Assembly (NCBI GenBank): GCA_905194675.1 | Contig: CAJJTG010000001.1 | Location: 75,632-139,631, forward strand | Direction of reading: 5' to 3' | Origin: an uncultured Collinsella sp. | GTDB taxonomy: Bacteria > Actinomycetota > Coriobacteriia > Coriobacteriales > Coriobacteriaceae | DNA length: 64,000 nt | Shown here: one piece after another, positions 644-28,895 of the stretch | Position numbering within the stretch: position 1 is the first letter of the stretch | Layout: each line of letters opens with the position of its first letter | Notes under the pieces: model-generated | Databases searched by the model: none | Told to the model about the DNA's origin: nothing | What the model saw: only the letters and a program-made list of their open reading frames with translations | Position numbers and translations under genes: made by a program

Positions 644-1693
644 ATGGCTGACGATCAGATTAAGCTCACGTCTATGACTGCCGCGAGCGGTTGAGCCGCT
701 AAGTTGGCTCCTGGAGCCCTCGCCCAGGTCCTGGGCGACTTACCCAATGTGCATAACGACAACCTGCTCGTGGGGTTCGATACCTCCGACGATGCGAGCG
801 TCTTTCGCGTTGGCGATAACCTGGGCCTCGTTCAGTCCATCGACTTCTTCCCGCCGATGGTCGACGACCCGTTCCTGTTTGGCCAGATCGCCGCGGCCAA
901 CTCGCTGTCGGACATCTATGCTATGGGCGGGCGGCCGAGTCATGCCATGAACCTGCTCTGCATACCCAGTTGCCTGGGCGTCGAGGTTGCCGGCCAGATT
1001 CTGGCGGGTGGCGCCGACAAGTGCGTCGAGGCCGGCTGCTCTATCGCGGGCGGCCACACCATCAACGACGACGAGCCCAAGTACGGCCTGTCCGTGAGCG
1101 GCTTTGTCGCGCTCGACCGTATGCTCGCCAACAGCGGTGCGCGCGTGGGCGATGCGTTACTGCTGACCAAGGCGGTTGGCTCGGGCATCATCACCACGGC
1201 CATTAAGGGCGAGCTTATCGAGCAGGACGAGGCCGCAGCCATGTTTGACTCGATGCGCACCCTCAACGAGGCGCCGATTCGTCTGGCCGAGGGACTCGAG
1301 CTTCACGGCTGTACCGACGTCACGGGCTTTGGCCTGATCGGGCATGCGTGCGAGATGGCCGAGGGCTCGGGCGTGCAGATTGAGCTTGCGTCAGGGGCCG
1401 TACCGCTCTTTGACCAGGTGCTCGACATGGCGCGTCTTGGCATTATCCCAGCCGGCGCCTACCGCAACCAGGACTTCTTTGGCCCCCGCGTGGCGGCCGA
1501 CGATGACCTGGAACCGGGCATGTTGGATGCGCTGTACGATCCGCAGACCTCGGGCGGCCTGCTCATCGCGGCGCCTGCTGCCGATGTGGATGAGCTTTCG
1601 CGTCGTCTGCATGCCGAAGGACGTATCGCCGCCGTCGTCGGTCGCGTGTGCGAGCCGGTGCCAGGCGGCCCTGCCGTCCGCGTTGCCCGTTAA
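644..1693 (+). CDS. selD: Selenide, water dikinase (selenophosphate synthetase), selenocysteine-containing form
   Basis: ATG at 644 is preceded by a GAGGAGG RBS. An in-frame TGA at 692-694 falls within ...TAASG-U-AAK..., aligning with the SGGC/UGAK active-site motif of SelD. Hairpins lie immediately 3' of the TGA (ggctcc/ggagcc and cccagg/cctggg), a candidate SECIS. Downstream the protein is SelD-like throughout. The ORF track starts only at TTG 704 because of the TGA. Confidence 0.85.
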
Positions 1694-1752
1694 CGACACG
1701 TTTATCGAACTATGCACCGTTCTAGAACGATTTATTCGAAAGGAAAAAAGCT

Positions 1753-2379
1753 ATGTCTACCAAAATTGAAGTCAATGCCATGGGCGATGCCTGCCCGCTG
1801 CCCGTCGTCAAGACGCTTAAGGCACTCAAACAGCTTGATGGCGAGGGCGCCGTCGTGACTTCGGTCGATAACGAGACGGCCGTGAAGAACATCTCCAAGA
1901 TGGCACAGGAGAAGGGCTGCACGGCCTCGGTCGAGAAGATTTCGGACGCTGAGTGGCACGTGACTGTCGCGACCGCCGGTGCCGTGGCCGTTGCGGACCC
2001 CGAGCAGGACGGTGCCGCTTTCTGCGACGCCAGCGCCGGCAAGGGCAAACTCGTCATTTCCGTCTACACCGATTGCATGGGTCGTGGCGACGACGAGCTG
2101 GGCCACAAGCTCATGAAGGCGTTTATCTTTGCCGTGACGCAGCAGGAGGAGCTGCCTGCGACCATGTTGTTCTACAACGGCGGCGCCAAGCTCACCGTTG
2201 AGGGGTCGCCGGTGCTCGATGATCTGAAGGGCCTGGCGGAACAGGGTGTCGAGATTCTCACCTGCGGTACCTGCCTGGACCACTTTGGCATCAAGGACCA
2301 GCTTGCCGTGGGCGAGGTCACCAACATGTACGTGATCGTGGAGAAGATGGAGCAGGCCGTGCGCGTCGTGCGCCCATAA
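1753..2379 (+). CDS. yedF: YedF-like selenium metabolism protein (N-terminal TusA-like CPxP domain plus DsrE-like domain)
   Basis: N-terminal GDACPLPVVKT TusA-type motif. 208 aa. RBS gaaagga 8 nt upstream. Located next to selD. Confidence 0.6.
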   Translation: MSTKIEVNAMGDACPLPVVKTLKALKQLDGEGAVVTSVDNETAVKNISKMAQEKGCTASVEKISDAEWHVTVATAGAVAVADPEQDGAAFCDASAGKGKLVISVYTDCMGRGDDELGHKLMKAFIFAVTQQEELPATMLFYNGGAKLTVEGSPVLDDLKGLAEQGVEILTCGTCLDHFGIKDQLAVGEVTNMYVIVEKMEQAVRVVRP

Positions 2380-2398
2380 CGTATTGGTTGGAGTTGCC

Positions 2399-2650
2399 AT
2401 GAGGGAGAAGCGCCCGGCGCTTGTCATCACGTTTCCCACCACGGCGGCCGCCATGGGCTGCGAATCTCTGTGCATCGAGCGCGGTCTTCCCGGACGAACG
2501 ATTCCCGTGCCCGGGGAGGTCGCTGCCGGTTGCGGTCTGGCGTGGAAGGCGTTGCCTGCCGATGAGGAGCTGCTGCGCGGCGAACTCGCCGCGGCGGGCG
2601 TTCCCACCGAGGGCTATACCGTGATTGATATGTGGGAGGTCGTGCGATGA
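2399..2650 (+). CDS. DUF3343 small protein (putative Se/S carrier-like)
   Basis: ~83 aa with motif LVITFPTTAAAMGCESLCIERGLPGRTIPVPGEVAAGCGLAW, typical of DUF3343. RBS GGAG with 5-nt spacer before ATG 2399. Its stop overlaps the next gene's start (ATGA). Confidence 0.55.
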   Translation: MREKRPALVITFPTTAAAMGCESLCIERGLPGRTIPVPGEVAAGCGLAWKALPADEELLRGELAAAGVPTEGYTVIDMWEVVR

Positions 2651-3789
2651 TCTACCTGGATAACGCGGCGACGACCATGCACAAGCCGCTGACGGTCATC
2701 GATGCCGTGACGCAGGCGATGTGCTCGCTCGGCAATGCCGGGCGCGGCGCCACGTCGGGCGCCCTCGATGCCGCGCGTACCATTCACGGCTGCCGCGCCA
2801 AGCTTGCGCGCTTGCTGGGCTGCCCGCGGGCGGATCATGTGTGCTTTACGCCCAACTCCACCGCGGCGCTCAACACCGTCATCAATGGCGTGGTGCGCCC
2901 CGGCGACCGTGTGGTCACGACGGTGCTCGAGCACAACTCCGTGCTACGTCCGCTCAATCGCTTGGCGGCAGAGCAGGGTGTGACGGTTGATCATGCGGGT
3001 TGCGACGTGAACGGCGCGCTCGACTACGACGAGCTCGAGCGGCTAGTCACGCCCGGTACGCGTGCCGTGGTGGTGACGCACGCCTCAAATGTGACCGGCA
3101 ACGCGGTCGACATTGCGCGCGTGGCGGCCATGGCCCATGCGGCCGGTGCGCTGGTGATCGTCGATGCCTCTCAGTCTGCCGGCACGGCGCGTATCGATAT
3201 GCATGCCATGGGGCTCGACATTGTGTGCTTTACCGGCCACAAGGGGCTCATGGGGCCCCAAGGCACCGGCGGCCTGGCCGTGGCGGAGGGCATTGACGTG
3301 TCTCCGTGGGCCATGGGCGGCACGGGCGTGCACAGCTTTGACCCACTGCAGCCACTTGAGTGGCCCACGCGGCTCGAGGCGGGCACGCTCAACGGTCACG
3401 GCATAGCGGGCCTTTCTGCCGGTCTCGACTTTATCGAGGCGCAAGGCGGGGTCGAGGCGATTGCGGCGCATGAGCGTGCGCTCGCCGATCGCTTCCTTGC
3501 CGGTGTGCGCGAAATCCCGGAGATCAAGCTCTACGGCGCTTTTGACCAGCCGTCGCGCTCGGCGATCGTCTCACTCAACGTGGGCGATATCGACTCTGCC
3601 GAGATCTCGGACGCGCTCATGCAGGGGTGGGGGATTGCGACGCGCTCCGGCGCCCATTGCGCTCCGCTCATGCACCACGCGCTGGGAACCGAGCGCCAGG
3701 GCGTGGTTCGGTTCTCGTTTGGTTACTTCAATACGGCCGAGGAAGTCGACATGGCGATTGAGGCTCTGCGCGATTTGAGCTGCGATTAG
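2647..3789 (+). CDS. Class V aminotransferase: cysteine desulfurase / selenocysteine lyase (SufS/CsdA-like)
   Basis: IYLDNAATT N-terminus. PLP-lysine motif FTGHKGLMGPQG. C-terminal RSGAHCAP catalytic Cys loop. Translationally coupled to the DUF3343 gene (ATGA overlap). Confidence 0.8.
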   Translation: MIYLDNAATTMHKPLTVIDAVTQAMCSLGNAGRGATSGALDAARTIHGCRAKLARLLGCPRADHVCFTPNSTAALNTVINGVVRPGDRVVTTVLEHNSVLRPLNRLAAEQGVTVDHAGCDVNGALDYDELERLVTPGTRAVVVTHASNVTGNAVDIARVAAMAHAAGALVIVDASQSAGTARIDMHAMGLDIVCFTGHKGLMGPQGTGGLAVAEGIDVSPWAMGGTGVHSFDPLQPLEWPTRLEAGTLNGHGIAGLSAGLDFIEAQGGVEAIAAHERALADRFLAGVREIPEIKLYGAFDQPSRSAIVSLNVGDIDSAEISDALMQGWGIATRSGAHCAPLMHHALGTERQGVVRFSFGYFNTAEEVDMAIEALRDLSCD

Positions 3790-3915
3790 ACCAACCTTTT
3801 GCGCCCTTAGATAAACCGTTTACGCTACCTTCCCGCATTGTCGCTTATACAGGGTAATGTGAAATGATGGCCCACACTGGGACTCTGTATCTTTGCGAAT
3901 TACGGGAAGGTTCCT

Positions 3916-6900
3916 ATGAACAGGATCACTGCTGCCCTCTATAGGTTTTTGGTTGTCTATCTTTCGGTTGCGATGGTCGTGACCTCGATACCGCTTGCGC
4001 CCCGCGCGGCTTATGCCGATGACGCCGGGGCGCTTGCCGTTGAGAGCGAGGCCCAAGAGACCGACTCGGGCTCCGATACCGATGCGGTCGATGAATCATC
4101 ATCTTCGGACGAAAGCGCTTCATCCGCGTCTTCCGACCAAGAGAATAATACGCAGGACGACTCATCCAGCGCGGCATCCGATGCCCCCGGGACGAGCCTA
4201 GCGCAGGACCTCACAAGTGCTGTGACTGATTCCGATGCTGCAAAGAGCTCGCCTGCAACGTCAGAGTCCTCGTCCGATGACAGCGAAGTCGATCCCCTCG
4301 TGTATGAGGATCCAACGGTCTATGAGTATGCCAAGCTTATGCCGAACGGCTATGTGTATCCGTGCGATGCAGGCGGAAGCGTTACGGTAGAGATTGATGG
4401 AAACGACCCGTATGGGAGCTCTGTCGACGGTAAATTGGTAACCAATCTGATCGTTGATTACGGAGTGGATGGGGTCCCCGGATATATTTGTGAGTATTCC
4501 TCCAATCTGCGTTCGGTGCGTTTTGAGAACAGCTCTATTTCTTCAATTGGACTACACGCCTTTTCTGGGTGCTCCAATCTCGCCGATATCAGCTTTTCCG
4601 GTATGACCATTGGAAGTATCGGAACAGGGGCCTTTTCTGGGTGCGGATCGCTTACGAGCCTGAACATTAATGACGTTGCTACCATCGGCTCTATGGGCGA
4701 TGCCGCGTTTGCCTGGAGCGGGCTGCGGTCTACGGGTCTCGACAAGGTCGTTGGTCTCAGTTCGATTCCTGAGAACGCTTATAATGCCTGCAGCGCTCTG
4801 ACCGATACCGGTCTGGGCGGGAACACATCCATCACGTCAATCGGCGTTAATGCGTTCAAAAACTGCTCCCGCCTTGCGACGACCGGACTTGAGAGCAATA
4901 CGACGATCAAGACGCTCCGCGAAGGTTGCTTCTCCGGGACCAATATGAGCGGCGGGCTGACGCTGCCCCTTTATTCCAAAATCGAGGAACTGCCGAGCCG
5001 TGCGTTCTATGGCTCTAAGCTCGAAACCGTGTACCTTGGGTGCGACCATGTGGTGCTCATTAATTCCACCACGTTTCCCAAGCAATACATGACTGTCATG
5101 GTCCCTGCCAAGATGGTTTCGCAATACGAAAGCGGCCACCCTAAAGAGGTTTGGGAGAGCTGTAATGGTAGCCTGCCCGTCCCCGTAGGCAAGATGCTCC
5201 AAAAGATTGAGATCTCGCGTGATCCCGACAAGATGGCCTATCAGCCGGGGGAAAAGATCTCGCTCGAGGGCATGAGTGTCACATTTCAATATCCTCATTC
5301 GACGATGGATAGCGACTACGAAGCGCTCATAAAGGAAGAACTCGGCGAATACCTTACGGCGACCCCCTGCGATGGTGATGTCTTCGACGAGTCGATGGAC
5401 GGAGAACCTATACAGCTCGTGTACGACGATGGCTACACGCGCCTTGTCGCGTACAGCAAGGGCAACCTGCAGCAGGCGGCCTACGAGTATGCCAAGCTCA
5501 TGCCCAACTACTATCTGTATCCGTGCGACGCAAACGGAAATCTTACAGTAGAAATCGATGAGAACAGCCCGCGCGAGAACTCCGTCGACGGTCGAATGGT
5601 AACGAATTTGATTGTCGATTACGGGGTGGATGAAGTCGACGCACAGCTCTGTGCCGACTCTACCAACCTGCGTTCAGTGCGCTTTGAGAACACTTCCATT
5701 TCCAAATTCGGATTGCACGCCTTCTATAACTGCCCGAATCTCACCGATATCAGCCTTTCCGGTATGACCATCGGCACCATCGGGAAAGAGGCATTCTATG
5801 GCTGCAAGTCGCTTGCGAGCCTGAACATCAGCGAGACTACTACCATTGGCTCGATGGGCGACGCCGCGTTTGCCGAGAGTGGACTGGTGTCCACGGGGCT
5901 CGACAAGGTTATCGGCCTCACATCGATTCCCGACAGAGCCTACGAAGGCTGCAAGGCTCTGACCGATACCGGCCTGGACAAGAATGCCTCCATTACATCG
6001 ATTGGCGTTTGCGCGTTCAGGTTTTGCTCGAACCTTGCTACCACAGGGCTCGAGAGCAACACAACGGTCGAAACGCTTGGCCACACCTGCTTCTACGGCA
6101 CCGACTTGAGCGGCGGACTGACGCTGCCATATAACTCCAAGATCGAGGAGTTGCCGGAAAAGGCGTTTGGCAGTACCAATCTCGAGACCGTGTTCTTTGG
6201 GTGCAACCATGCGGTGCTCATTAACACCGACACGTTCCCCAAATACAACATGACCGTCATGGTCCCTGCCAGGATGATTCCGAAGTATGCTAACGGGCAT
6301 CCCAAAGCTGTTTGGGAGAGGTGCAACGGCTGCCTGCCCGTCCCGGTGGGCAAGGTGCTCGAGAACGTTGGGATCTCACGCGACCCCAACAACATGACCT
6401 ACGAGACGGGGGAGACCATTTCGCTCGAGGGCATGAGCGTTGAGCTCGATTACCCGCATACGGTATCGATTTGGAACTACGAGGCGCTCATACAGGAAGA
6501 GCTCGGCGAGTACCTTACGGCCACCCCCTGCGACGGTGACGTCTTCGATGAGTCGATGGACGGACAGCCCGTAAAGCTCGTGTATGACGACGGCTATTCG
6601 CATTTTGAAACCCAGACCAAGGGCACGCTACGGCTCAAGAAGCCTGAGCCGACGTCGTTCCAGATCTCCTATGCTCAAACGATCGATAAAGGCGAACGCA
6701 AACTGATGGACGGCGTTGAGCTGCCCGATGTTTCCGGCGCGACGACGATCGATGCGGGCGCCGAGGTCACGCTCGATGCCGGTGCTTTGGGGATGCTCAA
6801 CGACAACATCACGTTTAAGGGCTGGTATGACACCGAGTCCGGCAAGTATATCTCCAAAGAGACGGCCTACACGTTTACGCCGGATAAGGATCTGTCCCTG

Positions 6901-9900
6901 GAGGCTCGCTTTAAGCTCAAGGACTATGCGGTGCATGTCAACGATGCGCAGGCGACCGATTCGTCGCAGGACTATGCGCACCTGAGTGTTACCGCCCAAA
7001 ACTGCTATCGCAATGCCGGCGAGACGGTTGAGGTTTCTGCCGTCACGGATAACGCCCTGTTCCTGGGCTGGTATCTGGGCGAGGGCGATGATGCGTACGC
7101 CGCGAGCGATCAGCTCGACTTTACCTATACGGTGGACAAGGCGGACGCGATTGTGTCCGAGGACAAGACTGACGCTAGGATCGAGATCACTCCGCGATAC
7201 TGCGCTCCGCAGGCGAGCGTTGTGCTGAGTGTGGATGGGGTCGATGAGAACGGGCAGCCGCTCGGGCAGTTCCTTTCCACCGGTCTGTACGGCATCGGGT
7301 CGCGCGTAACGGTCGTGGCGGTGCCAATGCCTGGCTATGTGTTTGACTACGCGACCGATGCCCTCGGCAACGTTGTCTTTACCGGCGACGATGGTCCGTC
7401 CTACACGTTTGTGCTCGAGGGAGATGTGCAGTACACCGCGCATTTCCGCGAGGCGACTGACCCCGACGAGTCACTCGCGGCGCTTAAAGCCGCGCTCATT
7501 GCCGCGATTACGGCTGCGGCCGTTCTCGCCACCATGTATGGCCTGGGCGAGATTGTCGACCCCATCGCGGCCGACGCGGTGATTGAGATCGGTATGGCCG
7601 ACAACATTGAGGATGTTGCCGCTGTGGGCACCAAGGTGCTCAAGGAGATTAAGGACATCATCGACGACCACAAGAAGCCCAAGCCTCATGGCGACCATAA
7701 GATTGAGATTATTGCCACCGCGCAGCCCGAGGTGGGCGGCGTCGTTACCGGAGGCGGTATCCACTATGAGGGGACGGTCGCCACGCTCGAAGCCGTCGCA
7801 AATCCCGGCTATCGCTTCGTATGTTGGAAAGAGAACGGCGTCGAGGTCTCGACATCTCCTCTCAAGACGATGACGATCACGGACCTGACGCCCGAGGTTG
7901 TAAAGATGACGGCCGTCTTTGAGAAAAAAGTCGAGGTCACGGCAGTTGCCGAAGCCGATGGCATTCAGGCCGATTTTTCGACGGGCTGCACCGCAAGCCC
8001 TGTAAAGCAGAGCATCACCCGTGGCGATCAGGCTATGGTCATTGCGAGCGAGGGTCCCGACTATGCCTTTGTGGGATGGTTTGAGGACGGCATCGAGGTT
8101 TCGCCCGAGCGCACGTATATCTTCGAGGCCGAGGTCGACCGCCATCTGGTTGCGCGCTTCCGCAAGGCGGACAAGACTATTCTGGTGAATACCGATCCCT
8201 TCGATAGCGCCGAGGTGCTGTGCGATGGCATGCCAGTCGTGGATGGCAAGGTTCGCGCGAAGGATGGCGATATTCTCACGTTTACGATGCGGCCCAAGGT
8301 GCGCCCCGACAATCCGGAGAAAACGTACCGTTTTGTAGAGTGGCGAGAAACCGATGCGCAGGGTATCACGATTGCCAACAAGCAGGAAGTTTGCGAATAC
8401 CGCGTTAACGGCAATGCCCGAATTGAGGCCGTAATGGACGGCAGAGATACGCATACCGTGCGTGCCGAGGCCGACCCGCTCGAGGGCGGCACCGTTACGC
8501 TGAAGCGCGGCGAGACTGCCGGCATGGTTCTCGAGGTCCCCGAGGGTGAGCGCGTGACCGCGGAGGCTACGCCATCCGAGGGCTATATCTTTGACGGTTG
8601 GTATCTGAGCAATGGTGGCTCGGATACTACGTCGACGCTGGTTTCGAGCGAGCGTTCGTATACCTTTGAGCCCATTACCGACTGCGTGGTCCAGGCGAAG
8701 TTTACGCGTGCCTGCAAGGTGGACGTTGTCGTTGAGCCGGCCGCGGCCATGGCGGGCAAATATATGGTGCACGGTGAGGGCTACTGCATGAAGGGCGAGC
8801 CTGCCACGCTGAGCATTGAGCTCACGGCGGAGGCGAGCAAACAATTTACCTTTAAGGGCTGGTACGACGCCAAGACGGACCTGCTTTTGGGTACCGACCC
8901 CAGCTATCTCGAGTTCTATCCCGAGGACGTGGAATGCACCGTGCGCGCGGTGTTTGAGGAAAATACCTATACCGTGACGGCGAAGGCCAAGAAGACCTTT
9001 GTGGAGCGCGGTACGGTTGAGATTGAGGGGCACCCGGGGGTATCTTCGGTTACCTGCGGATATGGCGACACGGTGATGCTCAAGGCGAAGGCCAATGACG
9101 GCTACCGCTTTGACCATTGGAAGGATGACTCCGGTAAGGAGTACGACTCTGCCGAGCTGGTCGTTAAGGTTACCAAGTGCGACACCTATACCGCGATCTT
9201 TACCGACTCAAAACCCGAGGTAATGGTCACGGCCGATTCGTGGCTCGGCGGTACTGTGACGTGTAATGGGACCGTGGTGAACCCTACGACCGATACGTTC
9301 AAATTAGGGGAGACCCTTCATCTGACGGCTAAGGCCCATCCTGGTTTTTTGTTCTGGGGTTGGTACGTCAATGGTCGCCTGAAGAGCCTTAAGCACGAGA
9401 CCTCGTTGGTTGCGAAGGCTCGCGGTAAAACCGGACACTGCGTTATTACCGCGGCCTTTGTGCCGATCGATACCGTCTGCGTGCCTCTCGCCGATCCTGC
9501 GGAGGGCGGCACCGTCAAGGCGAGCCGAATCCTTGCCGACCGCGGCGCGGAGGTTGCCCTTAAGGCGACGCCCAATCCCGGTTACGTCTTTACTGGTTGG
9601 TATACGGCCGACGGCACGTTTGAGTCTGCCGATGCGGAGTTCACCTGCCACCAGGAGCGCAGCCATGTGCACGTCGCTCGCTTTATGGCAAAAAGCTATG
9701 AAGTCGACGCCACGACGGTAGTCGATTCCGGCACCGGTTCGCTGGTCGAATCGAGCGTCGCCGGCTGGGTCGAGGGCGCAGGCACCGTCGAGGCGGGGCA
9801 TGCCGCCACGCTGACGGCGCATGCGCTTTCGGGCTATGCGTTTGAGTATTGGGCCGATGCCTCGGGCGCCGTGGTAAGCCGTGACAGCACCTATCACGTG

Positions 9901-12900
9901 GTGCCGACGTCTGACACGACGCTTCAGGCCGTGTTCTCGGCAAAACAATATACGGTGGACGTCTCGTGCGAGGAGAGCATGGGCACGGTCGAGGGCGCGG
10001 GGGCGTATGCCGCTGGACAGGTCGCAACCGTGCGTGCGGTCGCCGCCGAGGATACGGCTTTTGTGGGCTGGTTCCGTAACGGCACATGCGTGAGCTCCAA
10101 GAAAACCTATCGATTTACCGTGCGTGAGGATACGTCGCTCTATGCCGTCTTTGCGTCGGGTTCGTATGTCGTGCATACCGTTGCTTCGCCTGCCGAGGGC
10201 GGAGCCGTGAGCGGCTTTGGTGGCTATGAGGCTGGCGACCGCGCAACGCTTCGTGCGATCGCCAACACCGGGTATTCGTTTGCGGGTTGGACGGACGACA
10301 AGGGCGAGACAGTCAGCGAGAACGCCGACTATACTGTTAAGGTCGCGGGTGACGCCACCTATACGGCGACCTTTACGCCTAAGTCCTATCAGGTCGTTTT
10401 GAGCGCGAGTGACGATAGCGTTAGCACTCTGAGCGGCGAGGGCTCCTATCAATTCGGTGATACGGTCGAACTCAACGTTACGCCTACGGGAACCAAACGT
10501 TTTGTCGGCTGGTATGTCCTGGATGCCGAGGGCAACAAGTCGCTGCTGAGCTGCGACGCCCATTGTTGGGTTAAGCTCGACAAGGATATGGTCGAGGGGC
10601 TCGAGGACGATACGTTGGAGCTCCAGGCCGTGTTTGCCGATCCGTACGAGGTGACCGTTACGGGCGAGGTCGTGGTGAAGGACAAGACTTCGAACAGGGG
10701 CTGCCGTGTTACGGGCAGCGGTAGCTTTGCCGTGGGCGACCAGGTGGAACTGTCCGCTGTTGCCGGTATGGGCTATCGCTTTGTGGGCTGGAGCACCGAT
10801 AAGGAGGGCACCTCGATTGTCGAGACCGCGACGACCCTCGATGTGACCGCCACGCAGGACATAACGTACTACGCGCAGTTCGAATCCGATGGACAGGTGA
10901 CCATTACCGTCACCGGCTCGTCCATCTTCCGCGGTACGGCCCTTCTGGTCGACGGCATTCCTGCCGGTAGCAGGTCATACGACAGGGGTGACATGTTTAT
11001 GGCCATCGCGATCCCGTGGAAGAAGTACCACTTCTCGCATTGGGTCGACGATGCGGGTGTTACGGTGGGCTACAGCGCTTTCTATATCGGTACCGCCAAG
11101 GAGAATAAGCAGCTTACGGCTGTGTTCTACGAGACGGGCTGCGATGTTCAGGTCGCTACGTATCCCAAGGATGCGGGCTTTAGCATGGTTGCGCTTGGTA
11201 CCGGTGGCTCCTACCACTCCGCCGCGATTATGTTTACCGTGCCGCACAAGGGTTGGAAGTTTAAATACTGGGCCGACGAGAACGGCATGCCTGTGGGCGC
11301 CACACCGGTGATCAACCGCGTAGTGTTTGGCAACCGTACTTTTACGGCCGTTTATGAGCGGGCGTCGATGACGGTTACGGCGGTGGATTCGCGTCAGGGC
11401 GGACACGTCGAGGGCTCCTCCGAGGACGAATCTCTGGGCTATGCCGTGACCAACGAAGTCGAGAACGGTACGTCCACGACCCTGACTGCCGTTCCCGATG
11501 CGGGCTATGTGTTCGATGGGTGGTATGCGCGCAATGACGACGGGTCGTTGGGCGATGAGCCGCTGAGCACGGATGCTACCTGGACGTTTGTCCCCGAGGA
11601 CAACATGACCGTCGAGGCGCGCTTTGCGGAGGCGCCTAAGTACAAGGTGACGGCCCGAGCGGTCAACGGATCGGTTGATCCGGAGTCTGCTTTGGTCGCT
11701 ACGGATGGCAAGGTGACGCTTTCGGCGGCGCCCGATGAGGGCTGCTACCTGACGCGCGTGACCGTTGCCGAAGAGGCCGGTGATGACGGTTCGGCCGGTA
11801 ATGCCTATGACCTCGATATTTCTGACTATAAGGGTGGGGCGTACGAGGTCACACTGAGTGGCGTGAGTGCTCCGCAGCAGGTCACGTTTGAATTCGCAAA
11901 GGCTGCGGCTCCGGAGGTGCTCGCTCAGCCGCAGGATACGAGTGCTTATGAGGGCGATCCGGTTGAACTTTCGGTTGCCGCCGAGGCGGGGCGCAACGTT
12001 CGCGTCCATGCGGCCGTGTCTTCTGGATCCGCTGCAGACGTCAAGCTGAGCTACCAGTGGTATCGCGTGTCTGACGATAGCGGCAAGGCGGTGGCGCTGA
12101 AGAGCGAGACGGGGGAGACGCTTTCGATCGCCCAGCTCGACAGCGACGGCGAGGGCGAGTACTTCTGCCGCATTACGCAGAACTACCTGGGCACGGTGAC
12201 AAAGACGGATACCGAACATGCGAAGGTATCCATCGTGCCGCGAGAAGCACTTGTGTTTAACGGGCGCGTGCTGCCGGTGGCGACCGCTCACGATGAGTAC
12301 CGTGCAGAGATTGCTGGTGCTACGGGCGGCAAGGCACCGTATGCGTACAACTTGGATGATGTTGAGGTTCCTGAGGGCATGCAGCTGACGCTGGCAGATG
12401 ACGGATCGGGCGCCTTGGTGCTCTCGGGCGTGCCTGCGGCTACGGGTGTGCATAGCTTCAAGATTAGGTGCACTGATGACCTGGGCAACAAGTGCGATGC
12501 GCACTTCGCGCTGCTCGTGAAGGCGAAGGAAGTCCCGCTTGCATTTGAGGGCCAGACCTTTACCTACAACGCGACGGCGCAGGCCCCGGAGCTTTCGGGC
12601 GTGCCCGAGGGTTGCGAGGACGATGTCAAACTGACCTATGTTGGCACGGGCGACACACATTACTCGTCGGATCAGGCGCCGGTGGATGCCGGCACGTATC
12701 GTGCGGTGGTGACGCTCGACGCCAAGGGATATGTCGGTAATGCCTCCTGTGACTTCACGATCGAGAAGGCCCCGGTCGATATTTCGATCGAGACGTCTGA
12801 TGTGACATACGATGGCGCACGACACGGTGCGGCGGTTGCGGTTGCCGGCCTTGATGCGTCTGGCTATTCCGTTGCCTATTGCGGTATAGATGGAACGTCC

Positions 12901-15900
12901 TATGGTCCGACGGCGCTGGAGCCGTGCGACAGTGGCAACTACCGCGTCACGGCTAAGGTGACTGACTCCAACTATCAGGGTAAAGAGTCCGCCGAGTTCT
13001 CGATTGCAAAGGCAAGCCAGGTCATTACGGGAACGACGAGCTATTCGGGCGTGTACGGTGGAGACCCCATTGTGTTTAACAACGTTGCCCAGACTCCCGT
13101 GACTTTTGAGCTGGTCGATTCCGATGACGATACGGGCCCGGTTTCGATTAAGGGACGCTGCGCGACGGTGAAGGCTGCCGGTACGGCACGTGTTGTCGCC
13201 CATGCCAAGGCGTCTCGAAACTATCTTGCCGCCGAGGACGTCGAGTTGACGGTTTCCGTTGCACCTGCCCAGTTGCTGGTGAAGGTCGACGATGCCGAGC
13301 GCTTTGAGGGCCAGGAAAATCCCGAGTTTACCTCCAGCTTGGTGAGCCGTTGCGACACCTCGGACGTTAAGGTTACGTACTTCTGCTCGGCGAATAAGAA
13401 ATCGCCGGCGGGTGAGTACCAGATCGACGCGGCGGTTGCGGATCCGAACTTTGATGTCGCGGTCGACCCCGGTACGCTGACGGTCAAGAAGAAGCCCGAG
13501 CACTACAAGGTGACGGCGAAGGCAGTCAACGGTTCGGTCGACAATGCTTTGGTTTCGGTTGTTGAGGGCGGGGACGCGACCCTCTCGGCGACGCCCGACG
13601 AGGGCTGCTACCTCGAGCGCGTGACGGTCGTGCAGGCCGGCTCGGATGCGACCGTTGACCTCGACATTTCTGATTACAAGGGCGGGGCGTACGAGGTCAC
13701 GCTGAACGATGTCACCGCATCGCAGGAGGTCACGTTCGAGTTTGCGAAGGCGGACGCTCCGCGTGTGGTCGCGCAGGCGCAGGACGTGAGCGTCCACGAG
13801 GGCGATACCGTCGCGCTCTCGGTCGCTGCCGAGGCAGGCAAGAACGTCGCCGACCACGCGGCCTCGTCCACGGGTTGCGCTGCCGAGGTTGAGCTTTCCT
13901 ACCAGTGGTTCCGCATGGCGAATGGCAAGGCCGTGGCGCTCGATGGCGAGACGGGGGAGACGCTCTCGCTCGCGGACCTCGATGACGAGAAAGCCGGCGA
14001 GTACTTCTGCCGCATCACTCAACGCTACCTTGGTACTGAGAAGCAAGCGGACAGTGATTGTGCCGCCGTTTCCGTCGTGCCGTGGGACACCCTTGTGTTT
14101 AACGGCGACCTGCTGCCGGCAGCGAGCGCGCACGGCACGTACCTCGCAACGATTGCCGGGGCCGCGGGCGGCAAGGCTCCGTACGAGTACGCATGGGATG
14201 AGACGAAGCTCCCCGACGGGTTCAAGCTTTCCCGTACACCGGGCGGTCTGACGCTCTCGGGCATCCCGTCCAAGACGGGCGTTTCCGCCTTTGATATCAC
14301 TTGCAGGGATGCTCGTGGCGAGGCCATGACCGCCCGCTTTGCGCTCGTTGTCCAGGCAAAGCACGTAAAGCTATCGTTCACGGATAGCGACTTTACCTTT
14401 AATGGCGCGTCGCAGGCGCCCGAAGTTTCCGGTGCTCCTAAGGTCTGCAAGGGCGACCTTAAGGTCTGGTACTTTGGTACTGGAAGCACGCAATATTCCT
14501 CGACGGAGGCCCCGACTGATGCCGGCACGTACCGCGCTGTCGCCACGCTGCGCGGCCACGGCTACATCGGTGCCGCCGCCTGCCAGTTTGAGATCGCTCT
14601 GGCAAAGCTCAAGGTGAAGGTTGACGACGCCGAGCGGTTCGAGGGCGAGGCGAACCCAGCGTTTACCTCGAGCCTGGAGAGTGCGGTTGACACTTCGGGT
14701 GTGAAGGTCGAGTATTCCTGCGATGCCGATGAGAGCTCTCCTGCTGGCGAGTACCAGATCGGCGCGACGGTCACCGACCCGAACTTCGATGTCGAGGTCG
14801 TGCCCGGAACGCTGACGGTGAAAAAGAAGCAGGAGCCCGTCGATCCAGACCCGGTGGTTCCGGACCCGGACAATCCTGATCCGGACAACCCGGATCCCGA
14901 TCAGCCTGATCCTGGTCCCAACCCCGACCCGGATCCTAACCCTGAACCTGATAATCCTGATCCGGGCCCCAAGCCGGATCCCGATAATCCCGACCCTGAT
15001 AACCCCGAGCCCGATAACCCGGACAAGCCCGAGCGCATTGAGGTGACGGCAAAGGCGGTCAACGGTTCGGTCGACAACGCTTCCGTCACCGTTGATGCGG
15101 GCGGCGACGTGACGCTCTCGGCGACGCCCGACAAGGGCTGCTACCTCGAGCTGGTGACGGTCACGGAAGCCGGCTCGGACAAGGCCATCGATCTCGATAT
15201 CTCCGACTATGAGGGCGGGGCGTACGAGGTCACGTTGAGTAGCGTCACCGCGTCGCAGGAGGTCACGTTCGAGTTCGTGAAGGCGGACGCTCCGAAGGTG
15301 ATCGCCCAGCCGCAGGATGCGAGCGCCCACGAGAGCGATGCTGTCGTGCTCTCGGTTGCTGCCGAGGCGGGCAAGGGCGTCCTCGACCACGCGTCCTCGT
15401 CCACGGGTTCCGCCGCTGATGTCGAACTGTCCTATCAATGGTTCCACATGGTGGGCGGCGAGGCCGTGGCGCTCGAGGGCGAGACGGGGGAGACGCTCCT
15501 CATCGAGGGCCTCGATGACGATTGCGCCGGCGAGTATTTCTGCCGCGTCACCCAGCGCTACCTTGGTACCGAGACGCAGGTGGAAAGCGATCGTGCCGTC
15601 GTTTCCGTTGTGCCCCGGGATGCCCTTGTGTTCAACGGCGGTCTGCTGCCGGTCGCACGTGCGCGTAGCACGTATCGCGCGACGATTTCGGGCGCCGCGG
15701 GTGGCGAAGCTCCGTATGAGTACACGTGGGACGACGCTAAGCTCCCCGACGGGTTTAAGCTTACCCGCACAGCGGGCGGTTTGACGCTCTCGGGCACCCC
15801 GTCCAAGGTCGGAGTGTCTACCTTTGACATCACGTGCAAGGATGCTCAGGGCAAGACCGTGACCGCGCACTTTGTTCTTGTCGTTCAGGCGAAGCGGGTC

Positions 15901-16824
15901 GAGCTTGCATTTGAGGGCGGCAACTTCGTCTATAGCGGTGACGCCCAGGCGCCCGAGGTCACGGGGGTTCCCAAGGCCTGCGAAGGTGACCTGAGGGTCA
16001 GGTATTACGGGACGGGCGGCACGCACTATTCGTCGAGTGGGGCCCCGACCGATGCCGGCACATATCGCGCCGTTGCCACGCTGCGAAGCGACGGGTATAT
16101 CGGCGCCGCCTCGCGCAAGTTCAAGATTTCACCGGCGAAGCTTAGGGTAAAGGTCGACGATGCTGAACGCTTCGAGGGAGAGGCGAATCCCGCCTTTACC
16201 TCGAGCCTAAAGAGCTCGGCCGATACCTCGGGCGTGAAAGTCGAGTACTCCTGCGTCGCCGATGAGAGTTCCCCGGCGGGCGAGTACCAGATCGGGGCGA
16301 CGGTCGCCGACCCGAACTTCGATGTCACGGTTGAGCCCGGTACGCTGACGGTGAAGAAGAAGCAGGAGCCTGTCAACCCGGACCCGGTGGTTCCCGATCC
16401 GGACAAGCCCGATGGACCCGATCCGGACAAGCCGGACCCGGACAAGCCCGAGCCTGACCAGCCTGATCCGGGCAAGCCTGAGCCCGACAAACCGGAGCCT
16501 GATCAGCCGGACAAGCCGGACCCGGATAACCCGGATAAGCCGGAGCCCGGCAACCCGGACCCGGATAAACCCGGGACGCCCGATTCCGACCAGCCGGATT
16601 CAAAGGATCCGACAAAACCCGGTAGTTCGGATGACTCCGCAGCTGATAAGGCAAAGGCATCGGGCGCGGAAAACTCCGGCAAGAAGGAATCTTCCAAGTC
16701 GAGCGCTCAGCAGCTCGCCGACACGGGCGATCGTGCGCCATTGGCCGTCGCCGTCGCTGTAGGCGCCGTTGCGCTTGTCGCGCTGGGACTCGAACTGCTG
16801 CGTCGCCGTCGCTCGGACGCGTAA
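3916..16824 (+). CDS. Giant (4302 aa) cell-wall-anchored surface protein / adhesin. Composition: signal peptide, Ser/Asp-rich acidic region, 2 BspA-type LRR modules, many Listeria-Bacteroides (Flg_new) repeats, 3 Ig/MBG-like megarepeats, Pro-Asp linkers, LADTG sorting signal
   Basis: Single uninterrupted ORF. N-terminal signal peptide (MNRITAALYRFLVVYLSVAMVVTSIPLAPRAAYA). Repeated GY(R/V)F(V/D)GW motifs. YQW...GEYFCR Ig-like motifs. C-terminus has LADTG (nt 16714-16728) followed by a hydrophobic segment and RRRRSDA tail, i.e. an LAXTG (class E sortase) type signal. Confidence 0.85.
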   Translation: MNRITAALYRFLVVYLSVAMVVTSIPLAPRAAYADDAGALAVESEAQETDSGSDTDAVDESSSSDESASSASSDQENNTQDDSSSAASDAPGTSLAQDLTSAVTDSDAAKSSPATSESSSDDSEVDPLVYEDPTVYEYAKLMPNGYVYPCDAGGSVTVEIDGNDPYGSSVDGKLVTNLIVDYGVDGVPGYICEYSSNLRSVRFENSSISSIGLHAFSGCSNLADISFSGMTIGSIGTGAFSGCGSLTSLNINDVATIGSMGDAAFAWSGLRSTGLDKVVGLSSIPENAYNACSALTDTGLGGNTSITSIGVNAFKNCSRLATTGLESNTTIKTLREGCFSGTNMSGGLTLPLYSKIEELPSRAFYGSKLETVYLGCDHVVLINSTTFPKQYMTVMVPAKMVSQYESGHPKEVWESCNGSLPVPVGKMLQKIEISRDPDKMAYQPGEKISLEGMSVTFQYPHSTMDSDYEALIKEELGEYLTATPCDGDVFDESMDGEPIQLVYDDGYTRLVAYSKGNLQQAAYEYAKLMPNYYLYPCDANGNLTVEIDENSPRENSVDGRMVTNLIVDYGVDEVDAQLCADSTNLRSVRFENTSISKFGLHAFYNCPNLTDISLSGMTIGTIGKEAFYGCKSLASLNISETTTIGSMGDAAFAESGLVSTGLDKVIGLTSIPDRAYEGCKALTDTGLDKNASITSIGVCAFRFCSNLATTGLESNTTVETLGHTCFYGTDLSGGLTLPYNSKIEELPEKAFGSTNLETVFFGCNHAVLINTDTFPKYNMTVMVPARMIPKYANGHPKAVWERCNGCLPVPVGKVLENVGISRDPNNMTYETGETISLEGMSVELDYPHTVSIWNYEALIQEELGEYLTATPCDGDVFDESMDGQPVKLVYDDGYSHFETQTKGTLRLKKPEPTSFQISYAQTIDKGERKLMDGVELPDVSGATTIDAGAEVTLDAGALGMLNDNITFKGWYDTESGKYISKETAYTFTPDKDLSLEARFKLKDYAVHVNDAQATDSSQDYAHLSVTAQNCYRNAGETVEVSAVTDNALFLGWYLGEGDDAYAASDQLDFTYTVDKADAIVSEDKTDARIEITPRYCAPQASVVLSVDGVDENGQPLGQFLSTGLYGIGSRVTVVAVPMPGYVFDYATDALGNVVFTGDDGPSYTFVLEGDVQYTAHFREATDPDESLAALKAALIAAITAAAVLATMYGLGEIVDPIAADAVIEIGMADNIEDVAAVGTKVLKEIKDIIDDHKKPKPHGDHKIEIIATAQPEVGGVVTGGGIHYEGTVATLEAVANPGYRFVCWKENGVEVSTSPLKTMTITDLTPEVVKMTAVFEKKVEVTAVAEADGIQADFSTGCTASPVKQSITRGDQAMVIASEGPDYAFVGWFEDGIEVSPERTYIFEAEVDRHLVARFRKADKTILVNTDPFDSAEVLCDGMPVVDGKVRAKDGDILTFTMRPKVRPDNPEKTYRFVEWRETDAQGITIANKQEVCEYRVNGNARIEAVMDGRDTHTVRAEADPLEGGTVTLKRGETAGMVLEVPEGERVTAEATPSEGYIFDGWYLSNGGSDTTSTLVSSERSYTFEPITDCVVQAKFTRACKVDVVVEPAAAMAGKYMVHGEGYCMKGEPATLSIELTAEASKQFTFKGWYDAKTDLLLGTDPSYLEFYPEDVECTVRAVFEENTYTVTAKAKKTFVERGTVEIEGHPGVSSVTCGYGDTVMLKAKANDGYRFDHWKDDSGKEYDSAELVVKVTKCDTYTAIFTDSKPEVMVTADSWLGGTVTCNGTVVNPTTDTFKLGETLHLTAKAHPGFLFWGWYVNGRLKSLKHETSLVAKARGKTGHCVITAAFVPIDTVCVPLADPAEGGTVKASRILADRGAEVALKATPNPGYVFTGWYTADGTFESADAEFTCHQERSHVHVARFMAKSYEVDATTVVDSGTGSLVESSVAGWVEGAGTVEAGHAATLTAHALSGYAFEYWADASGAVVSRDSTYHVVPTSDTTLQAVFSAKQYTVDVSCEESMGTVEGAGAYAAGQVATVRAVAAEDTAFVGWFRNGTCVSSKKTYRFTVREDTSLYAVFASGSYVVHTVASPAEGGAVSGFGGYEAGDRATLRAIANTGYSFAGWTDDKGETVSENADYTVKVAGDATYTATFTPKSYQVVLSASDDSVSTLSGEGSYQFGDTVELNVTPTGTKRFVGWYVLDAEGNKSLLSCDAHCWVKLDKDMVEGLEDDTLELQAVFADPYEVTVTGEVVVKDKTSNRGCRVTGSGSFAVGDQVELSAVAGMGYRFVGWSTDKEGTSIVETATTLDVTATQDITYYAQFESDGQVTITVTGSSIFRGTALLVDGIPAGSRSYDRGDMFMAIAIPWKKYHFSHWVDDAGVTVGYSAFYIGTAKENKQLTAVFYETGCDVQVATYPKDAGFSMVALGTGGSYHSAAIMFTVPHKGWKFKYWADENGMPVGATPVINRVVFGNRTFTAVYERASMTVTAVDSRQGGHVEGSSEDESLGYAVTNEVENGTSTTLTAVPDAGYVFDGWYARNDDGSLGDEPLSTDATWTFVPEDNMTVEARFAEAPKYKVTARAVNGSVDPESALVATDGKVTLSAAPDEGCYLTRVTVAEEAGDDGSAGNAYDLDISDYKGGAYEVTLSGVSAPQQVTFEFAKAAAPEVLAQPQDTSAYEGDPVELSVAAEAGRNVRVHAAVSSGSAADVKLSYQWYRVSDDSGKAVALKSETGETLSIAQLDSDGEGEYFCRITQNYLGTVTKTDTEHAKVSIVPREALVFNGRVLPVATAHDEYRAEIAGATGGKAPYAYNLDDVEVPEGMQLTLADDGSGALVLSGVPAATGVHSFKIRCTDDLGNKCDAHFALLVKAKEVPLAFEGQTFTYNATAQAPELSGVPEGCEDDVKLTYVGTGDTHYSSDQAPVDAGTYRAVVTLDAKGYVGNASCDFTIEKAPVDISIETSDVTYDGARHGAAVAVAGLDASGYSVAYCGIDGTSYGPTALEPCDSGNYRVTAKVTDSNYQGKESAEFSIAKASQVITGTTSYSGVYGGDPIVFNNVAQTPVTFELVDSDDDTGPVSIKGRCATVKAAGTARVVAHAKASRNYLAAEDVELTVSVAPAQLLVKVDDAERFEGQENPEFTSSLVSRCDTSDVKVTYFCSANKKSPAGEYQIDAAVADPNFDVAVDPGTLTVKKKPEHYKVTAKAVNGSVDNALVSVVEGGDATLSATPDEGCYLERVTVVQAGSDATVDLDISDYKGGAYEVTLNDVTASQEVTFEFAKADAPRVVAQAQDVSVHEGDTVALSVAAEAGKNVADHAASSTGCAAEVELSYQWFRMANGKAVALDGETGETLSLADLDDEKAGEYFCRITQRYLGTEKQADSDCAAVSVVPWDTLVFNGDLLPAASAHGTYLATIAGAAGGKAPYEYAWDETKLPDGFKLSRTPGGLTLSGIPSKTGVSAFDITCRDARGEAMTARFALVVQAKHVKLSFTDSDFTFNGASQAPEVSGAPKVCKGDLKVWYFGTGSTQYSSTEAPTDAGTYRAVATLRGHGYIGAAACQFEIALAKLKVKVDDAERFEGEANPAFTSSLESAVDTSGVKVEYSCDADESSPAGEYQIGATVTDPNFDVEVVPGTLTVKKKQEPVDPDPVVPDPDNPDPDNPDPDQPDPGPNPDPDPNPEPDNPDPGPKPDPDNPDPDNPEPDNPDKPERIEVTAKAVNGSVDNASVTVDAGGDVTLSATPDKGCYLELVTVTEAGSDKAIDLDISDYEGGAYEVTLSSVTASQEVTFEFVKADAPKVIAQPQDASAHESDAVVLSVAAEAGKGVLDHASSSTGSAADVELSYQWFHMVGGEAVALEGETGETLLIEGLDDDCAGEYFCRVTQRYLGTETQVESDRAVVSVVPRDALVFNGGLLPVARARSTYRATISGAAGGEAPYEYTWDDAKLPDGFKLTRTAGGLTLSGTPSKVGVSTFDITCKDAQGKTVTAHFVLVVQAKRVELAFEGGNFVYSGDAQAPEVTGVPKACEGDLRVRYYGTGGTHYSSSGAPTDAGTYRAVATLRSDGYIGAASRKFKISPAKLRVKVDDAERFEGEANPAFTSSLKSSADTSGVKVEYSCVADESSPAGEYQIGATVADPNFDVTVEPGTLTVKKKQEPVNPDPVVPDPDKPDGPDPDKPDPDKPEPDQPDPGKPEPDKPEPDQPDKPDPDNPDKPEPGNPDPDKPGTPDSDQPDSKDPTKPGSSDDSAADKAKASGAENSGKKESSKSSAQQLADTGDRAPLAVAVAVGAVALVALGLELLRRRRSDA
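4321..6600 (+). repeat. Two tandem ~1.15-kb in-gene repeats encoding LRR (BspA-like) modules
   Basis: YEYAKLMPNGYVYPCDAGG... (from 4321) and YEYAKLMPNYYLYPCDANG... (from 5491) align nearly residue-for-residue over ~380 aa. Confidence 0.7.
11638..16360 (+). repeat. Three tandem in-gene megarepeats (~1.86, ~1.54, ~1.32 kb). Repeats 2 and 3 are each followed by a Pro-Asp-rich (PDPDNPDP...) linker (nt 14836-15030 and 16363-16600)
   Basis: Units begin KYKVTARAVNGSVD (11638), HYKVTAKAVNGSVD (13501) and RIEVTAKAVNGSVD (15040). High nucleotide identity, e.g. the DLDISDYKGGAYEVTL segments. Confidence 0.75.
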
Positions 16825-16888: not shown

Positions 16889-16925
16889 GCGGGACGGGTC
16901 TTTTGCCCGTCCCGTTTTTGTTTTG
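16889..16925 (+). terminator. Rho-independent terminator after the giant surface-protein gene
   Basis: gggacggg-tcttttg-cccgtccc stem followed by a gtttttgtttt T-run. Confidence 0.7.
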
Positions 16926-18392: not shown

Positions 18393-18469
18393 CGGGACGT
18401 GGCGCAGTTTGGTAGCGCGCCTGCTTTGGGAGCAGGATGTCGCAGGTTCAAATCCTGTCGTCCCGACCA
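18393..18469 (+). tRNA. tRNA-Pro (anticodon TGG)
   Basis: CGGGACGTGGCGCAG...CGTCCCGACCA. Anticodon loop ctTTGGGag. T-arm GGTTCAAATCC. CCA encoded. Confidence 0.85.
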
Positions 18470-18475
18470 TATCTT

Positions 18476-18549
18476 GCGGGCGTAGTTCAATGGTAGAACC
18501 CCAGCCTTCCAAGCTGATGACGCGGGTTCGATTCCCGTCGCCCGCTCCA
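18476..18549 (+). tRNA. tRNA-Gly (anticodon TCC)
   Basis: GCGGGCGTAGTTCAATGGTAGAAC...CAGCCTTCCAAGCTG... closely resembles E. coli glyT. Acceptor GCGGGCG/CGCCCGC + T + CCA. Confidence 0.85.
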
Positions 18550-19090: not shown

Positions 19091-19546
19091 CTAGCTGCGG
19101 GGGCGGTGGCGGAGCTTGTCGATGGTGGAGTCGATGCTGCGGCTGCGAGCTTCGGCTGCGGTTTGGCGCTTGCGGCGGTAATCGATCATGCCTTGGATGA
19201 TGGGCTTGCCAAAGCTCACGACATCATCGTTGTAGATGGCGGTTCGGGCTGCGAGGAGGCAGTCGGTAAAGTCCATATGGGTCTTGCCAAAGAGTTTGAT
19301 GGCAAGGGCGACAACGGTGGGCTCGTCGACCATGACGTCATCGAGCAGCCTTTTCATGGCCGCAGCAATCTCAACGCGGGGAACCTTATAGACGTCGCGC
19401 AGCGTGACCACGACGCGCGTGATGATTTCGGGGTAGACACGAGCGGTGCGGGTGGCGATGACCTTGGCGGCGCGCGGTGACAGAACTTCGTCGTCGTCAA
19501 GCAGGTAGCGTAGGATGACGGTCTCGTCGATGATGGTGCTACTCAT
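19091..19546 (-). CDS. PIN-domain toxin (VapC-like) of a type II toxin-antitoxin pair
   Basis: 151 aa. N-terminal IIDETVIL. C-terminal FTDCLLAARTAIYNDDVVSFGKP matches the PIN D..(L)IAA.A....lvT.D pattern. Overlaps the upstream antitoxin gene by 8 nt. Confidence 0.55.
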   Translation of the reverse strand: MSSTIIDETVILRYLLDDDEVLSPRAAKVIATRTARVYPEIITRVVVTLRDVYKVPRVEIAAAMKRLLDDVMVDEPTVVALAIKLFGKTHMDFTDCLLAARTAIYNDDVVSFGKPIIQGMIDYRRKRQTAAEARSRSIDSTIDKLRHRPRS

Positions 19547-19862
19547 GGATATCTACTTCCTCGGGACCCAAAATCGAATCGTCGCTTTCTGTAGCAAGGT
19601 ATTCAATCCAGACATTGCGCTCCTTGGAGCGGCGATTGGGGTCCCCATTTGCTTTGAGCGATCCATAGGCGGCGGTGCCGTCCTTTGAGCGCACGGCGAC
19701 CGGCTGAAAGGGGAGCTTGCGCATCAAAATGCTCTGCGCGACAAATAGACGTACGGCCTCGGCGAGCGATGTGCCCATGGCGTCGTAGAGACGTTCGGCA
19801 TGCTGCTTGTCTTCCTCGCGAATGCGCACCTGCAGGATGGCTCGTTTTTGAGTCGATGACAT
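19539..19862 (-). CDS. RelB/DinJ-type (RHH) antitoxin
   Basis: Probable start at the internal Met (MSSTQKRAILQVRIREEDKQHAERLYDAMGTSLAEAVRLFVAQSIL...) with RBS aaggggg 4 nt upstream. Resembles DinJ family IRIDEDLK...AVRMFL. Confidence 0.5.
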   Translation of the reverse strand: MSSTQKRAILQVRIREEDKQHAERLYDAMGTSLAEAVRLFVAQSILMRKLPFQPVAVRSKDGTAAYGSLKANGDPNRRSKERNVWIEYLATESDDSILGPEEVDIHE

Positions 19863-20086
19863 CACTGGCCCCCTTAATGAGCGTGCAATATAGTCGGTCA
19901 AATGCGGCATGTGCCGATACTTGAGCATCTTATAACGATTACTTTATTTCACTCAAGTTGATAACCATTAACACGAATACAAGCGTAGTACATCCAAAAC
20001 GAGAGCGCGTAAAAATCTCTGCAGCGTACGCGTGTAATACACTCGCCTTTATATCCTATTGAGAATAATCCTAACCAGCCCAAACT

Positions 20087-20110: not shown

Positions 20111-20288
20111 GGTTACGCTCAAGTTTACCCCCTGCAACTGCGTATATTCAATCTGTATACCGTTGGAGAAATTCTACCGAGTGCCTGTTTCGCCGCATGC
20201 ATTCGATACGCCGATGCCAGGCCACGGGCGGCTTGGGACAACGTCGACAGGGTCTCTCCGGCATGGGATTCAGGAGGGAGTGAACAAC

Positions 20289-28892: not shown

Positions 28893-28895
28893 TCC

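Follow-up and report, generated by a model that had tools for sequence, protein, structure and literature searches.

Leucine-rich repeat (LRR) proteins of the BspA family have been described as adhesins, and Collinsella is a prevalent human gut genus that association studies have repeatedly linked to disease states; to our knowledge, the attachment of Collinsella to anything is unstudied. We analyzed a single open reading frame (ORF) of 12.9 kb (12,909 nucleotides [nt]) in a 64,000-nt stretch of contig CAJJTG010000001.1 from an uncultured Collinsella sp. (hereafter the window). Its 4302-residue product is quite probably a surface fibril protein (“fibrillar adhesin”) that a gut bacterium of the Collinsella aerofaciens group exports by the Sec route and would probably anchor covalently to its cell wall. 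The protein is an uncharacterized member of a well-known kind and already stands in public databases under an automatic name: its 90%-identity cluster has 1078 members, with the NCBI representative “InlB B-repeat-containing protein, Collinsella aerofaciens,” and literature searches found no paper on the giant Collinsella protein. As the largest Collinsella surface protein, encoded by a gene that a species-level genome scan places almost universally in the genus, it suggests itself as the first candidate adhesin and perhaps as a target for strain typing or as an antigen. What is not routine about it is a conserved helical insert and the question of its sortase; none of this alters how the biology of surface proteins is understood.

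Monzon et al. (J Bacteriol 2022; PMC9210967) set out a scheme for the fibrillar adhesins of Gram-positive bacteria in which the stalk domains include MBG and Flg_new. The giant protein has in common with these adhesins a signal peptide at the N terminus, a long tandem beta-rich stalk, and a C-terminal sortase-type anchor, and it has a putative binding-type domain at its distal end. It differs in a duplicated BspA-type LRR head, three nested levels of repeats, and an 83-residue helical module within the stalk; LRR_5, the family to which the head belongs, was not found by a text search of PMC9210967. A first-pass annotation of the window had likened the protein to giant adhesins with a sortase signal, and this comparison is supported by the domain content, the conservation of the sorting signal, and the fit to the fibrillar-adhesin scheme (PMC9210967).

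Three further systems offer points of comparison. BspA-like LRR proteins (Tannerella forsythia BspA; structures 4FS7 and 4GT6) are the best PDB relatives of the LRR modules, which match LRR_5 at 91-93 bits, but they are typically far shorter and are anchored differently in Bacteroidota, whereas here an LRR cassette of ~385 residues sits in one to three copies on a stalk of ~3400 residues with a sortase signal. Listeria internalins likewise combine the Flg_new (InlB B-repeat) domain with an LRR head ahead of the repeats. The giant protein, however, has LRRs of the LRR_5 type, about 20 B-repeats instead of one or few, and LADTG rather than LPXTG or GW modules, and a Pfam scan of it detected no internalin cap, inter-repeat, or other internalin-specific domain; it is not an internalin because its LRR is of the wrong type. 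In periscope proteins, as here, the number of modules differs between lineages (in the giant protein, LRR cassettes 1-3; large composite stalk repeats, hereafter megarepeats, 2-3; Pro-Asp linkers variable). Periscope genes have highly identical DNA repeats, whereas those of the giant gene are 74-80% identical with exact repeats of 23 nt at most, and they are therefore too diverged for a typical periscope protein.

The giant gene is real and intact

The giant 4302-residue Collinsella surface protein is real and intact. Its gene (3916..16824, +) begins with ATG and comprises 4302 codons plus stop with 0 internal stops, which confirms the single open frame of 12.9 kb reported in the first-pass annotation. 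A ribosome-binding site read from the sequence (GGGAAGG, 3904..3910, +) lies 5 nt 5' of the ATG, and an intrinsic-terminator-like hairpin with a T tract (16889..16925, +; hairpin 16889-16915, 11 bp, 8 of them G-C) is found 65 nt past the stop codon. The GC content at the three codon positions (GC3 0.72 > GC1 0.61 > GC2 0.47) follows the pattern of the neighboring genes, including their third-position bias. The identical 4302-residue protein was found on at least 8-9 independent contigs (NCBI, IMG, Logan, and ENA).

Near-identical DNA repeats of 1.1-1.9 kb, and with them a proneness to assembly collapse, had been expected of this gene; neither is borne out. The two LRR modules (A and B), annotated as near-identical units of ~380 residues, are indeed two LRR_5 modules, but they share only 69% protein and 74% DNA identity. 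Megarepeats 2 and 3 are 75% identical in protein and 79.5% in DNA, and megarepeat 1 is ~45% identical to either of them in protein. No exact direct repeat anywhere in the coding sequence is longer than 23 nt, and Tandem Repeats Finder returned periods of 15-45 nt only, all within the two Pro-Asp linkers. Given this divergence and the shortness of exact repeats, ordinary k-mer sizes can resolve the gene.

These observations bear on the view that the giant ORF is an assembly artefact, formed from collapsed or mis-joined repeats, or a pseudogene. Some related loci lend it support: ~16 of 79 terminate within the gene, several of them where megarepeat 1 begins (query residues 2593-2613) or close to linker 2 (residues 4135-4151), and a homologue in Senegalimassilia carries a CAG-to-TAG nonsense codon in three assemblies. 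Another ~9 of the 79 are split by frameshift or nonsense changes, which likewise favors it. Broken copies, however, are mostly found in low-coverage metagenome-assembled genomes, and the frameshifted or nonsense copies, most of them in such genomes, may be assembly errors. Against an artefact also stand the module counts common to 43 of 52 complete orthologues, purifying selection along the whole length of the gene, and recovery of the same sequence, residue for residue, from different projects. Since the identical sequence recurs on so many contigs and its repeats are diverged, collapse or pseudogene status is very unlikely for this copy, and we regard an artefact as highly improbable.

Domain architecture from signal peptide to sorting signal

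The layout of the protein was derived by a tiled self-comparison together with a Pfam scan, in which LRR_5, Flg_new_2, Flg_new, MBG_3, MBG_2, and He_PIG scored above cut-off, bearing out the LRR_5, Flg_new, and MBG annotation proposed earlier. All features that follow lie on the + strand. A predicted Sec-type signal peptide (residues 1-34, 3916..4017; MNRITAALYRFLVVYLSVAMVVTSIPLAPRAAYA, followed by DD) has a basic n-region, a hydrophobic core (Kyte-Doolittle peak 2.02), and a cleavage-type end, AYA before DD. The acidic Ser/Asp/Glu-rich distal region comes next (residues 35-135, 4018..4320), in the order that the first-pass annotation had given for signal peptide and acidic stretch. LRR module A (residues 136-522, 4321..5481; LRR_5 E = 6.5e-26) consists of a BspA-type LRR and then a ~95-residue beta domain, and it is followed by LRR module B (residues 523-906, 5482..6633; LRR_5 E = 2.1e-26). 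The two score 91.2 and 92.8 bits against a Pfam gathering cut-off of 27.7, and their closest solved structures in the PDB, 4FS7 and 4GT6 (E ~1e-18 to 1e-19), are BspA-like “cell surface proteins” of gut bacteria; LRR_8 and LRR_4 of Pfam also match the giant protein.

The stalk opens with a first block of Flg_new-type repeats (residues 907-1179, 6634..7452; Flg_new_2 E = 1.7e-13, Flg_new E = 3e-4), which is separated by the non-repeat helical insert (residues 1180-1262, 7453..7701), a predicted three-helix bundle, from the main Flg_new/Flg_new_2 array (residues 1263-2575, 7702..11640). This array holds ~16 repeats that are mutually 30-40% identical and match Flg_new_2 with E-values down to 2.4e-63. 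The F-x-G-W motif of the Flg_new repeats recurs every 74-93 residues over residues ~907-2575, giving ~20 repeats in all and substantiating the earlier description of a run of Listeria-Bacteroides-type repeats.

Megarepeat 1 (residues 2576-3192, 11641..13491) is a long form with extra MBG_3 domains (MBG_3 E = 1.1e-21 in three stretches; MBG_2 E = 1.9e-7; Ig_3 E = 4e-5; He_PIG E = 3e-4), and megarepeats 2 (residues 3193-3640, 13492..14835) and 3 (residues 3704-4151, 15025..16368) each match MBG_3, MBG_2, He_PIG, and Ig_3. The three megarepeats with Ig-like and MBG-like domains had been recognized from the outset; the Ig_3/I-set matches are sub-threshold, yet they fall at the position of the YQW...GEYFCR motif in 3/3 megarepeats. 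Neither a megarepeat nor the Flg_new array brought up useful relatives when searched by sequence against the PDB. Both Pro-Asp linkers anticipated ahead of the LADTG signal are present: linker 1 (residues 3641-3703, 14836..15024; 15-nt periods in Tandem Repeats Finder) lies between megarepeats 2 and 3, and the Pro-Asp/Lys linker 2 with a Ser/Lys-rich pre-anchor spacer (residues 4152-4266, 16369..16713; periods of 15-45 nt) leads into the cell-wall sorting signal (residues 4267-4302, 16714..16821).

Copy number varies between species-level lineages

Orthologues were sought in one genome per species, so that copy number is compared here between species-level genomes. The scan yielded 79 loci at 74-97% identity, almost all labelled Collinsella or Coriobacteriaceae, 52 of which are complete. 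Two LRR modules and three megarepeats, in a protein of 4245-4333 residues, are found in 43 of the 52. The LRR module is single in four (~3870 residues, with the B-like module retained), double in 45, and triple in three (~4700 residues); one orthologue (L057) has two megarepeats and 3760 residues, and another (L039) is without one MBG_2 end and has 4088 residues. The Pro-Asp linkers range from 28 to 88 residues, and the length of the Flg_new array does not change among the 52. The copy-number variation that had been predicted was thus recovered when repeat counts were compared between lineages (1-3 LRR modules, 2-3 megarepeats, linkers of 28-88 residues). With one layout in 43 of 52 and the remainder varied, this variation is real but occasional, and, since the repeats are also diverged, it points to changes of length between species now and then and not to rapid switching.

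The Senegalimassilia homologue is called as two genes (2622 + 781 residues) that are divided by an in-frame TAG (L082, 9965-9967) where relatives have CAG (Gln). The same TAG occurs in L083 and L084, and because it is common to three independent assemblies, it looks like a real nonsense allele and not an assembly error.

A variable tip on a constrained stalk

Selection along the protein was measured by the ratio of nonsynonymous to synonymous substitution rates (dN/dS; Nei-Gojobori) on a codon alignment of the 43 same-layout orthologues. The acidic tip has the top ratio (0.36) and varies more than any other part of the protein, with a mean pairwise orthologue identity down to 0.71; the ratio is 0.23 in LRR module A, 0.15 in LRR module B, 0.09-0.15 in the Flg_new stalk, 0.16-0.22 in the megarepeats, and 0.12 in the signal peptide. 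Every region stays below 0.4, which indicates purifying selection throughout. Variation thus peaks at the distal end and is least in the stalk, the pattern expected of a binding head on a spacer, and this division into variable tip and constant stalk points to the parts worth expressing for binding tests. Region-wide positive selection at the tip was considered and rejected: a proxy based on amino-acid and synonymous codon differences came out near 1, but the Nei-Gojobori ratio of 0.23-0.36 speaks for relaxed constraint only.

A putative route to the surface and a putative binding head

The architecture suggests how such a protein might work. The signal peptide would direct the chain across the membrane, where LADTG, the hydrophobic segment, and the Arg tail would retain it until a sortase cleaves the Thr-Gly bond and couples the protein to peptidoglycan. 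The Pro-Asp linkers would cross the wall, the three megarepeats (Ig-like, He_PIG, and MBG) and the ~20 Flg_new repeats would form a long beta-rich stalk, and the two BspA-type LRR modules with the acidic tip would make up a distal, putatively ligand-binding head.

A surface fibril could have a main role other than host adhesion, such as co-aggregation of bacteria with one another, capture of dietary particles or glycans, or service as a structural layer of the envelope. Several features are compatible with such a role: no domain was detected for which a specific host ligand is known, BspA-type LRR and Flg_new domains serve generically for binding and as spacers, the flanking genes are of housekeeping type (selenium metabolism upstream, brnQ downstream), and the near-universality of the gene in the genus resembles that of a core envelope component. 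Adhesion is favored, by contrast, by the description of BspA-family LRR proteins as adhesins, and the adhesin scheme (PMC9210967) is matched by a long stalk whose distal tip bears a variable LRR head. On balance, we consider a main role outside host adhesion rather unlikely.

Sorting signal and candidate sortases

The sorting signal is tripartite, with LADTG at residue 4267, a hydrophobic segment at residues 4272-4297 (Kyte-Doolittle peak 2.45), and the basic tail RRRRSDA. LADTG is kept in 59 of the locus ORFs and is nearly invariant in Collinsella while adjacent residues vary, which argues for selection on the motif itself. LAXTG is a documented sortase signal and the class E motif in other Actinobacteria (PMC5148588), and it is the LAXTG motif alone that suggests a class E enzyme for the giant protein. 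Substrates of class E enzymes (Streptomyces SrtE1 and the housekeeping sortases of Bifidobacterium and Corynebacterium) resemble it in the L-A-x-T-G motif, the hydrophobic segment, the basic tail, and the actinobacterial host. They differ from it in that its sister-family relatives carry LGQTG or QQQTG with a neighboring sortase of class B, and in that the window holds no class E sortase.

Wall anchoring may instead depend on a sortase other than class E, for example a housekeeping enzyme of class B type like that of the Eggerthellaceae, which would handle LADTG here and LGQTG in relatives. The Senegalimassilia homologue, which ends in LGQTG, lies 2.4 kb upstream of a sortase that matches TIGR03064 (class B) at 163 bits (cut-off 153.75) and whose best PDB relatives are all SrtB. 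In another genome, the same sortase stands in a conserved ppk-ppx-PPK2-(small transmembrane [TM] ORF)-srtB-purF-purM context, a placement that suggests a housekeeping role, and close homologues named class B occur in Eggerthella, Gordonibacter, Raoultibacter, and Rubneribacter, all of them Eggerthellaceae. Collinsella, however, belongs to a different family (Coriobacteriaceae), no Collinsella-labelled sortase was among the class B matches listed when searching from the Senegalimassilia enzyme, and the adjacency in Senegalimassilia may be a coincidence, while LAXTG is documented for class E (PMC5148588). Literature searches returned nothing on Collinsella sortases. We put forward a sortase outside class E only tentatively, and class E is likewise a candidate assignment, suggested by the motif.

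In two Eggerthellaceae genomes, a conserved single-pass membrane ORF of 33-35 residues (W-x-IPVIVAVIVI...KGFLDEMKKK; L082 14337-14438 and L085 9722-9829) immediately precedes the class B sortase. SafA, a small membrane protein, has been linked as a partner to the housekeeping sortases of actinobacteria (PMC9282373); the 33-35-residue ORF is like it in its position beside a sortase and differs in being without the FPW motif of SafA.

Some findings weigh against a covalently anchored, fully exported fibril. The 64-kb window contains no sortase gene. Outside Collinsella, some relatives have LGQTG or QQQTG instead and some have no LxxTG motif at all, so that covalent anchoring is not universal in the family. 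The first helix of the insert (residues 1186-1208) has membrane-grade hydropathy and would be at odds with full export were it to work as a stop-transfer segment. Along the same lines, the giant protein could stay in the membrane through a C-terminal or internal hydrophobic helix and never be cleaved by a sortase. Family members P0172, P0173, and P0023, which end in a TM segment and a basic tail and lack LxxTG, are in keeping with this, as is the TM-like hydropathy of the internal helix. The near-invariance of LADTG across Collinsella orthologues argues in the other direction, as does the C-terminal flank of the internal helix, which is strongly acidic and has no basic residues and so disfavors stop-transfer; the AlphaFold (AF2) model, moreover, packs this helix within a three-helix bundle. 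A permanent membrane anchor is accordingly improbable in our assessment. Because of this acidic flank, and because everything downstream is typical extracellular material, we infer that the insert is exported and folded as a small helical domain and does not stop transfer.

A highly constrained helical insert

The first helix of the 83-residue insert (SLAALKAALIAAITAAAVLATMYGL) reaches a Kyte-Doolittle peak of 2.2, to be compared with 2.02 in the signal peptide and 2.45 in the C-terminal anchor. The AF2 model of the insert as a three-helix bundle, based on a 7-sequence alignment, has a mean predicted local distance difference test score (pLDDT) of 79, and the same helices appeared in a single-sequence run. 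The insert has no Pfam match, and a Foldseek search of the PDB with the model gave nothing better than E = 1.9 and generic helical folds only; streptococcal factor-H-binding and GA-type three-helix bundles, at E >=1.9, were not taken as homologues.

The insert is present once in 52/52 complete orthologues, and among the 43 of common layout it has the lowest dN/dS in the gene (0.02). Its synonymous divergence is ordinary (dS 0.30) and as high as elsewhere, which places the constraint on the protein and not on DNA or RNA. A word-index search with the 83 residues gave no match, and when 1.84 billion representatives were searched exhaustively with HMMER, only 7 had the insert: six giant relatives of 1991-3481 residues with the same overall plan and one 95-residue fragment. 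By these searches, the insert appears to be confined to this family of giant Coriobacteriia proteins.

As the most constrained segment, with normal dS, no Pfam family, and no fold in the PDB, the insert may have a specific role. That it is a previously undescribed functional domain, particular to the giant surface proteins of Coriobacteriia and with a role beyond spacing, is a possibility that we hold with considerable doubt. The insert might let fibrils associate laterally with one another, dock a partner protein or a host ligand, or touch a membrane, but these are guesses. The insert is a small and well-defined module that could be deleted or expressed alone.

Antisense frames are shadows of the gene

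Large antisense ORFs across the gene were rejected as genes. In the codon-aligned antisense frame, 20 stops occur in 4302 codons, leaving ORFs of up to 1129 residues, because the sense strand seldom uses TTA, CTA, and TCA. These ORFs are rich in Arg (17%) and Leu (12%), have GC1 > GC3 (the reverse of the sense strand), and lack any Pfam match, and in 34 of the 43 same-layout orthologues the longest contains stops. The first-pass annotation was right to dismiss them as artefacts: they are shadows of the giant gene.

Genomic neighborhood and selenium genes

Upstream of the giant gene is a selenium-utilization set consisting of an AIRS-family protein, a TusA/DsrE protein, and a cysteine desulfurase-family enzyme (SclA-like match below threshold). 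Downstream are brnQ, two tRNAs, a formate-hydrogenlyase-like cluster, and then tig, clpP, clpX, and valS; nothing suggestive of a mobile element was seen among the neighbors in the window.

The molybdopterin oxidoreductase at 20776-23106 (+) appears as two same-frame ORFs (20776-21303 and 21328-23106) parted by a single TGA at 21301-21303, in a context (VDNCART-TGA-HGPTVLGL) that is the selenocysteine motif of formate dehydrogenase-H. On this motif, the pair is almost certainly one selenoprotein gene, not two, heading the formate-hydrogenlyase-like cluster (20163-32231). A selenocysteine tRNA (41449-41541, +) matches Rfam RF01852 at 64.6 bits. It is overlapped by a 768-residue ORF on the opposite strand (39307-41613) that has no Pfam match and is probably spurious. 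Taken with the selenium-utilization-type genes at 704-3789, this tRNA suggests that the window carries much of a selenium-utilization toolkit.

Two adjacent tRNA genes (18393-18546, +) lie just downstream of brnQ, and a third (48460-48540, +) precedes the trigger-factor gene (all Rfam RF00005). A RelB-antitoxin-like ORF (19539-19928, -; Pfam RelB E = 3e-6) and a 151-residue ORF with no family match (19091-19546), which share 8 nt, are situated after the first two tRNAs and before the hydrogenlyase cluster; together (19091-19928, -) they may be a toxin-antitoxin pair.

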